Assembly (NCBI GenBank): GCA_030390025.1
Contig: CM059427.1
Location: forward strand, 57,164,001-57,228,000
Origin: Squalus acanthias
Lineage: Eukaryota
Length of the DNA: 64,000 nucleotides
Reading direction: 5' to 3'
The position numbers and the translations under genes were made by a program. Positions 3,908 to 62,711 of the stretch are shown piece after piece; the stretch's first letter is position 1, and each line of letters starts with the position of its first letter. The notes below the pieces were generated by a model that was not told the DNA's origin, ran no database searches, and saw only the letters and a program-made list of their open reading frames with translations.

Positions 3908-4050
3908 GGAGCAAATACAGAAAATGCTGGAGATATTTAGCAGGACAGGCGGCATCCATCAGGAAAACATGAGACAATTGATCTTTCAGGTATAAAACCT
4001 TCCCTCAGAACTGAAAGATATTACAGATAAACAGCATTTAAGGAAGCAAA
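3908..4050 (-). mobile_element. Degenerate Penelope-like terminal-repeat fragment with diverged hammerhead motif
   Basis: ACAGAAAATGCTGGAGATATTTAGCAGGACAGGCGGCATC...TTTCAGGTATAAAACCTTCCCTCAGAACTG is homologous to the copies at 32045, 37427 and 52695. Confidence 0.7.
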
Positions 4051-14459: not shown

Positions 14460-14615
14460 CGCTGGGAATTTACTCGGAGGTTCTCCCGATTGACTGCCAT
14501 AACTTCAGCGGAAGATCGGCAGAAACCCCGTTTGTGCTTCTATCCGGGGTTTCCACCAATCTTCCGCTAAAGTTACAGCAGCCGCTCGAGAAATTCCCAG
14601 AGGAAATTCCCAGCG
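14460..14615. mobile_element. Palindromic MITE (156 bp), Harbinger-type
   Basis: Perfect TIR CGCTGGGAATTT / AAATTCCCAGCG, TAG target duplication, internal arms TAACTTCAGCGGAAGAT / ATCTTCCGCTAAAGTTA. Confidence 0.88.
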
Positions 14616-18218: not shown

Positions 18219-18404
18219 GGGGTAGAAATTTGTCTTGGGCGGGAGCGCACATTAGGCGCTATTGCATCAGCCGCCCATTATACCCTCCACCCGATATTCA
18301 GTTCCATTGACTTCAATAGAATTAAATATCGGTCAGTGCGTATAACAGGTGGCAGGTGCGATAACACCCGTTTAGTGTTACCGCCCAAGACAAATTTCTA
18401 CCCC
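18219..18404. mobile_element. Palindromic MITE (186 bp), Harbinger-type
   Basis: Perfect 23-bp TIR GGGGTAGAAATTTGTCTTGGGCG(G); centre CCATTGACTTCAATAG; flanks ATG/GTG. Confidence 0.9.
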
Positions 18405-31147: not shown

Positions 31148-32044
31148 CTGCCTAATACAGTGCAATCTACCTTTTTTTAACTATACCAGTAATTTTTGTG
31201 TGAGTCTGATTGTTCATAAAATGGCTGGCACTAAGTTTGTAAGAAAAAAATGTAATTACGAAAGAAAGTACTTTGATGTTTGTGTATATTAAATCATCCG
31301 CAGCACGCAGTCTGCAGTCAGCACACTGTAGTCTACATTGTGCTGAGGGACCAATGCTGGCACACTGAAGGGAGATGTCATCCAGCCCTAGAGCATGTTC
31401 AGCAAGTCCCAGTGCACAGAGGTTTATGAGGGCAGAGTGTGGCTGTGTGCCTAGAGAGTATACTAACCTCTTGGGTAGACGGGTAGGGTTGCTTTATGTC
31501 AGTCTGAGCTGGAATGAGCCACATGTTGAAAAATGGGCTGAAATTACTGTCTGAACTGTAGTCAGTCAGTTCCTTTTATTACTGAACCTGCTTTAAAGCT
31601 GTACCATATTACAGAAAAACGTGTTTTCAGCTCAAATTTGGAATTGCACCTATGCCAAGATGTCATTTAAAGATCATGTAGCAATAGCTTTTTGATGATG
31701 TCATTGCTGACGGTTGATGTCATCCTGTCATCTTGCATTTGGCCAACTCTCAAGAGGAGAAATTATTCGACTAGCTTACTAGTACCGCATGTAAAATCAC
31801 ACAGATCCCTTTGCCAATCGAACAGTTTCTGCTCTTCCAGGTTGTTCTAATAATTATGCTGAAATGCCACTGATAAACAGCCAGCAAAAGTAAGCTTTTC
31901 TAAAATCAAACGGCCTCAAATTGGGCGAGTTCAGGTCATAACTCCAATCCCTGAATTCAATTCAGATCATTTCAGATATTAAATCAGCTGCCACTTTTAA
32001 AAATGGGATTACACAGGCATAGAGCAACAAACCTCTTTGTATAC

Positions 32045-32177
32045 AAAAAGAAAATACTGCAGATGCTGGAAATCTAAAATAAAAACAGAAAATGCTGGAG
32101 ATACTCAGCAGGTCAGGCAGCATCTGTGGAGAGAGAAAGAGAGTTAACGTTTCAGGTCGATGACCTTTCATCAGAAC
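32045..32177 (-). mobile_element. Penelope-like terminal-repeat element
   Basis: Multi-copy ~130-bp repeat flanked by CTCTT(A)TGTATACA duplication; carries a hammerhead motif. Confidence 0.75.
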
Positions 32178-32180
32178 TCT
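32140..32180 (-). ncRNA. Minimal type I hammerhead ribozyme motif
   Basis: AGAGUU-CUGAUGA-A-AGGUC-AUC-GACCU-GAAA-CGUU-AACUCU: 6-bp helix I, 5-bp helix II, palindromic AACGUU helix III, GUU cleavage triplet. Confidence 0.75.
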
Positions 32181-32602
32181 TATGTATACATATATGTTCC
32201 TATCATACAGATTTCATCAAACATTTGTCACCATTATGTGGGTTGGTGGATGGATTTGTGGGTGCTGTTGGAGGCATAGTATCAAAAGTAGGTTGCATTG
32301 AAAAATATTTAGTTTTAGTACCTGCTTGTTTAATGTGGAGACGACGGACTGGGAAAGGATTTTCCTGGTGGTTGGTGGCAGAGGAGGAGGAGAATAAGAT
32401 CTTGGTTTGATTCTAATGCAGATTCCCTCTTTGCCATTAAAATTGTTTTGCATGATTATTGGGAGCAGAAATGTTTTCTATTAATCTAGAATCATGTTAT
32501 CTGGCATGACTGATCTTTAGATTTGGTTCCGTAAATATCAAAATTACGAACCTCAAGAAGTCAAACCCACAAATAAAATCAAAATCAGATGTCGAACACC
32601 AA

Positions 32603-34867: not shown

Positions 34868-35275
34868 ACCGCGGATGCTGGAAATCTGAAATAAAAACAG
34901 AAAATGCTGGAAGCGTCAGCAAGTCAGGCAGCATCTGTGGAGAGAAAAGAAAGAAAGACTTGCATTTCTATCGCGCCTTTCACAACCTCAGGACGTGCCA
35001 ACACGTTTTACAGCCAATGAAGTACTTTTAAAGTGTAGTCACTGTTGTAATGTAGGAAACAGAGTTAACGTTTCAGGTCGATGACCATTCATAAGAACTG
35101 GAAGATGTTAGAGATGAACAGCCTTTAAGCAAGTAGGTAAACAGAGTAAGAGAGACAAGTGAAAAATCCCATCGGAGAGAAGAGCATGCTGGAAACACTC
35201 AGCATGGTCAGGCAGTATCTGCAGTGAGTGAAACATTTCAGGTCGACGACCTTTCATTTGAACTACAAGATGTTC
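34868..35275 (-). mobile_element. Two Penelope-like repeat copies with broken hammerhead cores; the first is interrupted by a DeuSINE tail (~34946-35060)
   Basis: Cores read CUUAUGA and CAAAUGA instead of CUGAUGA; inserted AAAGAAAGACTTGCATTTCTATCGCGCC... SINE tail. Confidence 0.75.
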
Positions 35276-37426
35276 TGCGTTGTCCTAAATTAGCATGGAT
35301 AAATGAGCCATGAGTGCCATCAGGTTAACTGGTAAACTCATCCATGATGATCTTCTTGGCATCAAATTCTACCAGTAAATTCATAGGCTGGAAACCTCTG
35401 CTGTCAGTGCATACTTGCATATTCTCAGCAGTTCAAAGTCATTAGGGAAGTCAACAATAGCAAACAATTCCTCTTTGGTTTTGTGTTACTGCTGCAGGGG
35501 CATTTGGAAGCTAAGATAACAATTTGTCATCCTCAGCATAGCAACAGTGAGTTGAGAAATTGTTTCAGACATTGCTGACTGAGTGTTGCCCATGGTTGCT
35601 ATGGCAGGGGTCTGAAAGATGCCAGTGGCACAGAAGGTAAGTGCAGTAGACGCCTTCACTGGCATTGACAGTAAAGCTGATGTGAGTCTGCCATTCCAAC
35701 TCCATTTTAAACTCTTCTTCAGAGGTCAGAGCTTTGTTTATTAATCATAAGTCTGTCCAATCATTTAAGTAAACTAGTGCCACATTTATAAGTATTAAGG
35801 GGTGCGCTACTTTATTAAATTCTAGTATGTGTGTATATAAATAGCATCCATCTATTTGAAATTGGCAATAACATCTGAATTGGCAGCCATTTTATACCCC
35901 AGTTCTTCAATCATTTGTCTGCAGAAAAGTGAAGAATGAAGTGAAGTCTGAAGTCACGAATGAGGCATAATGCAAAGACTTCAGCACAGAATTTTGTGAA
36001 CAGACTCACATTTTGTGCCAAAGTGCCTAATATACACAGATATAAAATGTGTCAACACACAAAAAAGTCAAGAGTATAGAGCATGTCTCAAACAACACTT
36101 GGAGCAAAATGTATTCAGGCACATTGGTACAGAATTTGCATGTAAGTGTGAAAAATTAAGTTGCATTTAGCTCATCCTTTTCTCAGCTAGCACTTCTGCT
36201 GCGAAGACATGCACACCCTATTCACGGAGCTCCTGGGATACTACCTCGGCAGGGCAGCGCCATCTGATTTTATCTCTCCACTCACCCCCCGTGGGAGTAG
36301 ACCCTCCCCCTCCCACCCCCACCATTACAGTGTTTTGAGTGCTTCATGTACAACTGCAGCTAATTTTATGCACCCCTTTGTGGCTATGATTCTCGCCTAC
36401 ACTATAGCCAATTGCATGGCAGGAGGGAAACCTATGGAAAAGTAAAATGATGGCACACACACACACTAATTTGTCCTTCTGCATATATTTTCAAAGGGCC
36501 AAATTTAGCCAATCCCAAAAATTCTAACCAAGGCTAAATTTAGATATTCACCAAATTAATTTAAATTGGATCAATTCTGGGTACTTAGTTCAGAACGCAT
36601 ATTAATCGAAATCCACTCAACTTCCTCCTCATAGTTTACTTGTGTACAGTTTCCTTGCTTCAGATCTTCTTTTCACCTTATCCTGTAGTCCTACACCATC
36701 TGTCTTGGTGCTAGCTAGCTCTCCTTCAAGTAAGGTCCTGGAGGAGAAACTTTGGTTCAGCAGTTTCAGCGTTAGTATGTACAAGCAATGGGATAATTCC
36801 AGTCAGTAACTTATTACCCAGTAAGTTTTCACTTGTTTATTTGGCTGAGTATTTAAATATAAAAATAACATTAAAAAAAAACTTTTCTGTCTTGATGTTA
36901 AACACATATAGTAAACAGAATAAAGCCTGATGAAAAGTAACATCACACTTTAACTTCACTTACATGAAATATACATCTACTTCTCCTTTTTCTGTCTATT
37001 TAAAGGTCATCCCCACCCTAATTATAGTTACAGGCAAATGTAAAGGTCAGTTACCATTAGAATTAATTTGGTTATTGTCCAACTGAACAAAGCTGCTGGT
37101 GTCAGTTCTTATCCACCTGGGGCAATACTAATTGTCCATCCTACCTTAGAGATGTTCTCAGGAACTTCCTCTGTATCATCTTGTTTTAGTATTTGTTGAT
37201 CTAAAAGTGAGGATCTTTTAAAATGTACCTTTTTCCTTTCTCTGTTTATTTATGACTATGATTGCAGAGGTAGTTTAGTTGCAAGGGGACTTTGTCTACC
37301 TCATGAAGTGATACAGAATAATTCCTTCAGCACAGCTCCGAAAGAAAAAGGGCTCTGTTAGTAAGTACTTTTTCTGACACCAGCTGCTTTGTTCAGCTGC
37401 AGACTAACAAAAACCTAACTAGAACT

Positions 37427-37531
37427 CTGAAATAAAAACAGAAAATGCTGGAAATACTCAGCAGGTCAAGCAGCATCTGTGGAGAGAGAAACAGAATTAA
37501 CGTTTCAGGTCGATGACCCTTCGTCAGAACT
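37427..37531 (-). mobile_element. Penelope-like terminal-repeat element
   Basis: Same repeat family; AGAACTCTG present at both junctions. Confidence 0.75.
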
Positions 37532-37535
37532 CTGT
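37491..37535 (-). ncRNA. Minimal type I hammerhead ribozyme motif
   Basis: ACAGAGUU-CUGACGA-A-GGGUC-AUC-GACCU-GAAA-CGUU-AAUUCUGU: 8-bp helix I with one G-U pair, intact core. Confidence 0.75.
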
Positions 37536-51720: not shown

Positions 51721-52694
51721 GCCTGAGTTTGGTGAGGTTTGGTTGTTGTGGCTAACAGACTGTCTAGGCACACAGATGAGGAAGAGAGAAATACCAGAAG
51801 GTCCCAATTAAACATGGAAAGATGCCCCAGCAGAGCTCACCACCTTGTGGAGGAGTTAGGGGAGAAAATCGGAGGCAAAATTAGAGAAGGTAAACACGAA
51901 CGAGCCAAATGTGTAGTGCACAGATTTACAATCAGAATGATCTCATTGTGGAATTGCTAGTTCAGCACCATGGGCTAAAAAATTGCAATTGTTTTAGTTA
52001 CTATGCTAGGCCAAAAAGCCAGAGCTGACTGCATTTGACTTTGTATTGTCTAGAGTAAGGCCTGTCAAATACGAATTCACAATTACAAGCACATGAGCAT
52101 TACATTCATCCCATGAACAATCATAGAATCATAGAAATTTACGGCACAGAAGGAGGCTATTCGGCCCATCTTGTCCGTGCCGGCCGACAAAGAGCTATCC
52201 ACCCTAATCCCACTTTCCAGCACTTGGACCATGGCCTTGTAGGTTACGGCACTTCAAGTGCACATCCAAGTACTTTTTAAATGCGATGAGAGTCTCTGCC
52301 TCTACCACCCTTTCAGGCAGTGAGTTCCAGACCCCCACCACCCTCTGGGTGAAAGAATTTCTCCTCAAATCCCCTCTAAACTTCCGACCAATTACTTTAA
52401 ATCTATGCCCCCTGATTATTGGCCCTTCTGCTAAGGGAACTAGGTCCTTCCTATCCACTCTATCTAGGCCCCTCATAATTTTATACACCTCAATTAGTTC
52501 TCCCCTCAGTCTCCTCTGTTCCAAAGTAAACAACCTCAGCCTATCCAATCTTTCCTCATAGCTAAAATTCCAGCCCAGCCAACATTCTCATAAATCTCCC
52601 CTGCACCTCCTCTAGTGCAATCACATCCTTCCTGTAATGTGGTGACCAGAACTGCACGCAGTATTCTAGTTGCGGCCTAACTAATGTTTTATAC

Positions 52695-52918
52695 AAAAGC
52701 AAAATACTGCGGATGCTGGAAATCTGAAATAAAAGCAGAAAATGCCGGAAATACTCAGCAGGTCAGGCAGCATCTGTGGAGATAGAAACAGAGTTAACGT
52801 TTCAGGTCGATGACCCTTCGTCAGAGCTAGTTCTGACGAAGGGTCATCGACCTGAAACGTTAAGTCTGTTTCTCTCTTGACTGATGCTGCCTGACCTGCT
52901 GAGTATTTCCAGCATTTT
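52695..52918. mobile_element. Inverted pair of Penelope-like terminal repeats, each with a hammerhead core
   Basis: Spacer-less palindrome centred at 52828/52829; 14-bp TSD CTAATGTTTTATAC / CTAGTGTTTTATAC. Confidence 0.85.
52829..52870 (+). ncRNA. Hammerhead ribozyme motif (sense to host gene)
   Basis: AGUU-CUGACGA-A-GGGUC-AUC-GACCU-GAAA-CGUU-AAGU; core intact, helix I short with one mismatch. Confidence 0.6.
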
Positions 52919-53279
52919 CTAGTGTTTTATACCATTCAAGCATAACCTCCCTGCTCTTATATTCTAAGCCTCAGCTAATAAAGGCAAGTATCCCGTATGC
53001 CTTCTTAGCCATCTTATCTACCTGTCCTGCTACCATCAGGGATCTGTGGACATGCAATCCAAAGGTCCCTCTGATCTTCTGCACTTCTCAGTGTCCTACC
53101 ATTTTTAGTGATATCCACTTGAGTATTTAACTGGCAAACTCAGAATATAGCAGAACTCAGAGCTATAATTAACAAGAGTACACTGTAACTGAAATAAATA
53201 TTCAGGTTTTAAAAAAACACAAAATTGCTGTTAATCATTCTCACAACCATAGTACACTGTACATAATGCATAGTACAAG

Positions 53280-62159: not shown

Positions 62160-62711
62160 GTCGAGACCAAGTGTAGTTGTCAGGTGAAGCAGGGTTAGAG
62201 GTCAGGGATAATTGGACCAGTGTGTGCAGATATAATTCAGTCCCAATTTTAAAGTTGTATATTCTATCCTTATTTTAATCTTTCAATCATAAATTCCTAT
62301 CTCCATATTTATGATGGAAACTGCCTGTATAAACTTGTCACACTGTAATTACACCCTCCTGCCAGTGATGACACTGCACGACAAGCTTACAAAGGCAGTT
62401 TCCATTATAAGTCTGAATATCGGAATTTAAAATGGAAAAGTTGAAAGGAAGAGTGTGCATATGTAAGATTCTTAATATATTACTAATCAATCTCCCATGG
62501 TGTTGACGAATAGTATAGCCTTCAGGTGAAGCAGGGTTAGAGGATAGGAATATTTTGACAAGGGCATGCAGACATAATTCAGTCCCCATTTTAGAGTGGT
62601 GCACTCTGTCCCTATTTTTATATTACTATTATAAATTCATAAGCCCATATTTATATTGGAAACTTCTTATGTAAATATTCACACTGTAATTACATTCTCC
62701 CACCAGTGATG
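62160..62711. repeat. Diverged direct duplication, ~342-bp period
   Basis: CAGGTGAAGCAGGGTTAGAGG at 62181 and 62523; ATAATTCAGTCCC, CATATTTAT, TGGAAACT, CACTGTAATTACA and CCAGTGATG follow in register. Confidence 0.9.

Follow-up and report, generated by a model that had tools for sequence, protein, structure and literature searches.

A minimal hammerhead ribozyme in the terminal repeats of an autonomous Penelope-like element of Squalus acanthias, and a probable origin of its short copies

Minimal hammerhead ribozymes (min-HHRs) have been known since 2014 from the pseudo-LTRs (pLTRs) of metazoan Penelope-like elements (PLEs), including the fish elements Xena, Poseidon and Neptune, and weak cleavage as dimers has been reported for them (Cervera & De la Pena 2014, PMC4209133). 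In the Poseidon element of Anolis carolinensis (PAc), the tail is defined by two internal sites where the reverse transcriptase (RT) primes, the enzyme acts on uncut RNA, and the ribozyme cuts only when the protein is present (Frangieh et al. 2024, PMC11167929). PLE promoters have been located within the repeat (PMC2377424, PMC3846280), and both Neptune and Poseidon occur in vertebrates (bioRxiv 10.64898/2026.07.22.740005). The motif described here belongs to the class known since 2014 and adds to it one host, Squalus acanthias, and a very large copy number (PMC4209133). Supplement file 2 of that study holds no cartilaginous-fish rows (shark, Callorhinchus or Leucoraja), and in the freely accessible literature searched we found no relevant paper on shark Penelope hammerheads or on Penelope or Neptune in shark genomes.

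The locus lies in a 64,000-nucleotide stretch of contig CM059427.1 (hereafter the window), where the 41-nt motif with all catalytic core nucleotides reported in the initial annotation is present letter for letter on the minus strand at 32140-32180. An ungapped scan allowing up to 15 mismatches in 41 returned the seven copies counted in that annotation, six on the minus strand (3974-4014, 32140-32180, 35061-35101, 35226-35266, 37493-37533 and 52790-52830) and one on the plus strand (52827-52867). The full core is kept in four of them, namely the copies at 32 and 37.5 kb and both at 52.8 kb, and a structural descriptor with a helix I of at least 1 bp matched the same four, or two when at least 3 bp were demanded. 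None of 200 dinucleotide shuffles of the window gave a descriptor match. The bare core pattern matched twice in the window against 1.55 expected, which is not significant, and an Rfam scan of the window gave no hammerhead match at E ≤ 1; its miRNA matches proved to be the head-to-head ribozyme pair and chance similarities. Genome-wide counts are strand-balanced. The window also contains short inverted repeats with 67-92-nt arms at 14460-14615, 18219-18404 and 62273-62446, which are unrelated to this repeat family. Table 1 gives the coordinates of the annotated features.

Table 1. PLE repeat copies in the window and parts of the copy at 32 kb. In the element numbering, position 0 is the A of AGTT, the 5′ strand of helix I.
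Feature	Positions	Strand	Evidence
Short copy of the PLE terminal repeat with tail, covering 0 to +138	32040..32178	-	Matches full-length copy L032 (3′ terminal repeat) at 97% identity
AGUU, 5′ strand of helix I; most frequent 5′ end among short copies	32175..32178	-	Counts of the base before AGTT; copy ends
Core C3-A9 (CUGAUGA) and extra A; A6-U7-G8 forms an in-frame AUG for the element ORF	32167..32174	-	
Helix II, 5 bp, 3-nt loop, A10.1-U11.1 closure	32154..32166	-	Pairing probabilities of 0.84-0.96 in a 140-nt stretch of L032
G12-A13-A14-A15.1, palindromic C15.2-G16.2, U16.1, U17	32146..32153	-	Register set by helix I pairing
Predicted cut	between 32146 and 32145	-	Register from helix I pairing; C17 in one subfamily
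Helix I 3′ strand AACU	32142..32145	-	Descriptor and pairing analysis
AUG at +55, start of the 955-codon ORF in full-length copies; here first codons only	32121..32123	-	
Target-site duplication, upstream copy; source of the extra AG in the 6-bp helix I	32177..32190	-	
Target-site duplication, downstream copy, 1-nt indel, overlaps the element 3′ end	32033..32045	-	
Second short copy, core intact, begins at 0	37419..37531	-	
Copy with tail, core intact, helix I mismatch; arm of head-to-head pair	52689..52828	-	
Inverted partner without tail, core intact, begins at 0	52829..52930	+	
Copy spanning -38 to +122, G5 mutated; other repeat inserted at about 34954-35059	34868..35134	-	
Old decayed copy, core broken	35186..35264	-	
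Old decayed copy (75%), core broken	3913..4016	-	

The motif is, by its sequence, a real minimal type I hammerhead of the PLE kind. The four intact window copies have the PLE min-HHR core (C3-U4-G5-A6-N7-G8-A9, G12-A13-A14-A15.1 and U16.1-H17), and the single base between A9 and position 10.1 and the palindromic 15.2-16.2 without loop 3, both noted in the initial annotation, match the published consensus. As in published min-HHRs, CUGANGA plus an extra base, GAAA, a palindromic CG and UH are combined with a short helix I and no helix III loop, most copies are solo with some near each other on opposite strands, and the motif ends in CGUU, as do 12 of the 44 rows listed (PMC4209133). Unlike the usual min-HHR, in which G10.1-C11.1 closes helix II, the shark motif lacks this pair and uses A-U (59 of 82 copies) or G-U (23 of 82), and published exceptions with A-U exist (PMC4209133).

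Genome-wide, the base preceding AGTT in exact copies is C in 19,180 cases and another base in 1,511; the element therefore carries C there and the family helix I comprises 4 bp (AGUU/AACU). The copy at 32 kb pairs over 6 bp because its extra AG, which supplies the fifth and sixth pairs, stems from a 13-14-nt target duplication (one indel), and the 37.5-kb copy has the same target-derived extension. The six-pair length is an accident of the insertion junction. In 11 chosen copies, 96% of cells are paired with a 4-bp helix I and a 5-bp helix II, compared with at most 58% when the strands are slid. These 11 close copies, among which there is little divergence, show no two-sided base-pair change and three pairs with one-sided wobble; the 100 copies listed among 1,030 without G10.2 look like uncompensated decay rather than helix II covariation. 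The pairing register of helix I and the young C17 subfamily support a predicted cut after U17, which agrees with the annotated cut after GUU.

The ribozyme is not confined to short copies. Many of the 30 best copies extend upstream in common sequence, five of them across the entire 1.5 kb compared, and locus L032 has a repeat-ORF-repeat arrangement with the repeats 3.2 kb apart and a broken frame. Loci L399 and L400 carry an uninterrupted frame that counts 971 codons if read from the AUG at +7 and 955 if read from the one at +55. Their terminal repeats, 584 and 360 nt long, match exactly and reach upstream of base 0 by 259 nt in one element and 482 nt in the other. The ORF contains RT, a CxxxxCxxC linker and GIY-YIG in that order, with YIDD, VY..YIG and C-C-H-H motifs in the 971-aa frame; Pfam matches to RVT_1 (E 2.5e-5) and GIY-YIG (E 4e-4) both fall below the Pfam gathering cut-offs. 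Homologues of at least 820 aa number 173, most among the matches listed having RT domains, and a Cys linker precedes the YIG motif in 111 of the 120 listed. The linker of locus L033, CKRRRCNTC, fits the pattern CX2-5CxxC between RT and the C-terminal endonuclease (EN). Partial-tandem pLTRs, an inverted 5′ partner and a 30-40-nt tail, all features of EN+ PLEs, are also present.

The element is an autonomous EN+ PLE with an RT/GIY-YIG frame between terminal repeats. A parent RT/GIY-YIG element, to which the initial annotation had looked, has thus been found with its repeat-ORF-repeat structure, and the link of the repeat to a Penelope-type ORF holds, as does the identification of a minimal type I hammerhead of a PLE by its core, helices, extra base, palindrome and position in a terminal repeat. 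The annotation's non-autonomous family does not stand, since an autonomous element with a 971-codon frame has the same sequence as its terminal repeat. By the definition in PMC8557442, the linker motif, used here in place of a tree, would make the element one of Neptune or Nematis type. It resembles Neptune EN+ PLEs in its single ORF with RT, Cys linker and C-terminal GIY-YIG with CCHH and, going by published description, in its partial tandems, inverted 5′-truncated partner and 30-40-nt tail (PMC8557442, PMC3846280). It resembles PAc in having the ribozyme at the start of the repeat-ORF unit, two 3′ ends about 35 nt apart within the first ORF codons, and no sign of cleaved RNA as template (PMC11167929). 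It differs from PAc by the CX2-5CxxC linker, which Poseidon lacks, and by AUGs at +7 (inside the core, in U7 subfamilies) and at +55 (PMC11167929).

In the 3.7-Gb genome, a 29-nt intact-core pattern has 23,564 exact matches (control, 0), and a further 4,335 matches have a base other than U at position 17, which is C in 97 of the 100 listed. Three mutually exclusive downstream patterns match 15,409, 3,803 and 21,783 times, giving 40,995 as a lower bound and bearing out the high copy number first suggested from the window. The published figures are about 4,000 for coelacanth and 9,000 for Xenopus, against the more than 40,000 here (PMC4209133). Among 40 evenly chosen 10-kb stretches there were nine intact descriptor matches, four of them from a second (AGCU) family. 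A repeat-to-body junction pattern matches 719 times, so tandem-junction copies are a small minority. At 6.99-7.13 Mb of contig C1 (G000; loci L076-L078), 1.7-kb units each hold a PLE stub with the same flanking DNA; this local segmental duplication brings intact ribozymes into direct tandem.

The window copies are stubs of the autonomous PLE terminal repeat, not a separate family. Subfamily diagnostics are common to short and autonomous copies, and 41 of 90 copies chosen by patterns from +54 onward reach at least 101 nt upstream, into the 3′ region of the autonomous element. Against this background we consider it largely refuted, and highly improbable, that the stubs are a separate non-autonomous ribozyme element, retrozyme-like or SINE-like, that passes through transcription, dimer cleavage and circularisation before re-insertion. 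The short copies are discrete, at 100-140 nt, and have their own duplications; like animal non-LTR retrozymes they are short, non-coding and PLE-related with a type I hammerhead (bioRxiv 10.64898/2026.07.22.740005; PMC7229834), and such retrozymes have been proposed to be PLE-repeat derivatives (bioRxiv 10.64898/2026.07.22.740005). However, the short copies carry the subfamily diagnostics of the autonomous ones, a solo copy, with its single ribozyme, is without the promoter-like words found upstream, and ends do not accumulate at the cut. Retrozymes form tandem arrays with a ribozyme in each unit, whereas the shark copies occur singly or head-to-head and belong to the same subfamilies as a coding element (bioRxiv 10.64898/2026.07.22.740005). 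Neither the window nor the loci inspected contained tandem arrays of the short unit, and the 1.7-kb spacings on C1, being duplications that include flanking DNA, are not the head-to-tail tandems of retrozymes. Their head-to-head orientation prevents the two intact copies at 52.8 kb from forming a sense-strand dimer in cis.

The ends of the copies indicate how stubs may arise. Among the 5′ ends of the same 90 copies, 13 fall at -3..+3 (seven exactly at base 0), 28 at +4..+53, four at -8..-4 and three at -100..-9; one lies at the selection pattern itself and the remaining 41 lie farther upstream, where alignment ends beyond about -100 are unreliable because subfamily references diverge and extension was limited to 330 nt. 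The rate per site is 0.033 at -3..+3, compared with 0.007 at +4..+53 (P 7e-6) and 0.0008 at -100..-9 (P 7e-9). A longer pattern finds about 1,500 copies genome-wide that break at base 0, and loose ends at 0/+1 occur in contigs of runs X1, X19 and X11. Sixty copies with a base other than C at -1 comprise 37 direct insertions, 16 inverted ones and seven point mutants; an exact target duplication of at least 8 nt abuts base 0 in 13 of the 37 direct copies, and AG is common to copy and target in 11 of these 13. The 3′ ends of 60 copies beginning at base 0 cluster at +92..+110 (33 copies) and +126..+137 (21 copies), and these clusters near +100 and +135 are the known PLE tail. No 5′ pile-up at the ribozyme edge is described for PAc in the text available for PMC11167929; it is a feature of the shark element.

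The predicted cleavage site has no comparable excess of ends, with 374 breaks against 365 at a control site 2 nt away and direct junctions in 12 of 30 cases at each; the main template therefore does not seem to be cleaved RNA. Three 3′ ends at the predicted cut were considered as cleavage products and rejected, two being later insertions with the repeat remainder downstream and one an inversion joint. At five loci (L396, L398, L344, L356 and L365) other mobile elements, perhaps a TTA/TAA-targeting DNA transposon, are inserted in GTTAAC at the predicted cut and mimic cleavage-site ends. A cap-derived extra G was likewise dropped as an explanation of the G at -1 in 29 of 60 copies, since 11 of these are inverted joints and none of the 13 duplications skips a base.

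We judge it probable, on the combined evidence, that the terminal repeat of an autonomous PLE whose linker is of Neptune type carries a minimal type I hammerhead and that the window copies are dead stubs, likely left by internally primed cDNA that ran off the 5′ end of uncut RNA. Transcription would start at base 0, at an Inr-like TCCAGT or TCAGTT preceded in subfamilies A-C by TTAAA at a distance of about 32 nt, and the ribozyme would then be the first 37 nt of the element mRNA. By analogy with the anole PLE in vitro, the element protein would nick DNA and prime at two internal RNA sites, and cDNA reaching base 0 would insert through 1-3 nt of microhomology. Alternatively, such cDNA may fold back through helix I (AACT) or continue on the second repeat, producing long and tandem copies. 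Roughly 18 of 30 tandem-junction copies, read by eye, continue upstream past base 0, and it is because most do so that the switch to the second repeat is needed. More generally, since copies and terminal repeats extend past base 0, linear RNA starting there would require a strand switch, a circle or read-through transcripts.

Two other readings bear on the same pile-up. One is purely structural: truncation would be frequent across the ribozyme hairpin, cDNA would be released or folded back once the hairpin is copied, and the upstream pyrimidine tract would rarely truncate, such that no start site is needed. End frequency is indeed already raised across +4..+53, the 37 nt are predicted to fold into a rod, fold-back through AACT accounts for five of 30 breaks at +33, and long copies cross base 0 seamlessly. 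However, the peak is sharp and lies on the far side of the hairpin, insertions that are direct rather than inverted have exact duplications right next to base 0, and Inr-like and TATA-like words stand at the expected spacing, PLEs being elements whose promoters sit in the repeat (PMC2377424, PMC3846280); we regard this reading as unlikely. The other reading takes base +2 as a 3′ splice site (pyrimidine tract, CAG), with short copies derived from spliced RNA, as at the Penelope ribozyme of D. virilis, where an intron ends at helix I (PMC4209133). All subfamilies do have a pyrimidine tract and AG ahead of the core, but ends peak at 0, keeping the AG, rather than at +2, the sequence that precedes the copies is target DNA or unrelated and contains no common first exon, and there is no GT..AG joint among the joints listed, which makes a splicing origin very unlikely.

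A more specific form of the run-off explanation is possible, although we hold it only tentatively and think it doubtful as a whole. Short copies would be the PLE equivalent of retroviral strong-stop DNA, in which cDNA that was primed within the 5′ repeat extends to a capped start at the first base of the ribozyme and a switch to the 3′ repeat builds partial tandems, and the hammerhead would act as a concentration-dependent off switch, dimer cleavage at +33 decapping the element's own message. No relevant paper on PLE strong-stop DNA or strand transfer was found in the freely accessible literature searched. In the run-off scheme the ribozyme would be mostly off: by itself it is predicted to form a rod in which the core is hidden, and cleavage would require a dimer or the element protein. 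Computed without tertiary contacts or protein, folding favours this rod, in which the core is paired with the cleavage strand: the active dimer is at -9.7 versus -18.2 kcal/mol for two monomers, A14-U17 pairing is 2.4 more stable than the active dimer, and the C17 subfamily retains an inhibitory rod (-9.5). The 41-mer from 32 kb folds slightly better than its shuffles (z -1.98).

Across 82 copies chosen without regard to the ribozyme, frequent variants occur at N7, 10.1 (A/G opposite U), loop II and N17, together with CpG decay and junction noise at 5′ ends. A very young subfamily of about 4,000 copies (L186-L215, L399 and L400) has linked U7 and C17 (22 of 26 scored); its U7 creates an in-frame AUG within the ribozyme core, and its C17 makes the canonical GUC triplet. 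U17 cleaves more slowly than C17. A further subfamily (L261, L269, L270 and L272; four of 30 loci) has U4→C in the catalytic core and a helix II reduced to 4 bp with a UUCG loop, and as three of its loci have frames open to the locus edge, the core is not strictly kept. Runs from four other organisms show changes at N7, 11.1, 11.2, 15.2, 16.2 and 1.4 and list none at 10% or more at core positions.

These variants bear on whether cleavage has been lost and the motif persists as a vestige that serves as a hairpin, promoter or protein-binding site. Such a state would be consistent with U17, the 4-bp A-U-rich helix I, the A/G10.1-U11.1 closure, the more stable predicted inactive fold, the existence of the U4→C subfamily and copy ends without a trace of cleavage. 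Against it stand the GUC triplet of the youngest subfamily, the core unchanged at that threshold in the four other organisms, and the CGUU ending, which is also found in the 12 published rows mentioned above (PMC4209133). We find loss of cleavage somewhat unlikely; as it concerns activity only, it is compatible with the run-off explanation of the stubs.

Tens of thousands of young junctions here record where cDNA starts and stops, a record that argues against cleaved RNA as the main template and serves the open questions of how the pLTRs, tails and inverted copies of PLEs come about and what role PLE hammerheads play. Natural variants permit direct cleavage tests (U17 versus C17, U4 versus C4 and four loop II sequences), and the youngest subfamily's change to U7/C17 offers a natural variant pair for the proposed off switch. 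A second, unrelated minimal-hammerhead family was also seen (L036, L040, L056, L078, L093, L129, L242, L375, L398 and others), with no intact copy in the window. It has an AGCU palindrome and a G-C-closed helix II of variable length, often occurs as inverted pairs, and shows a compensatory C-G/U-A change in helix I.
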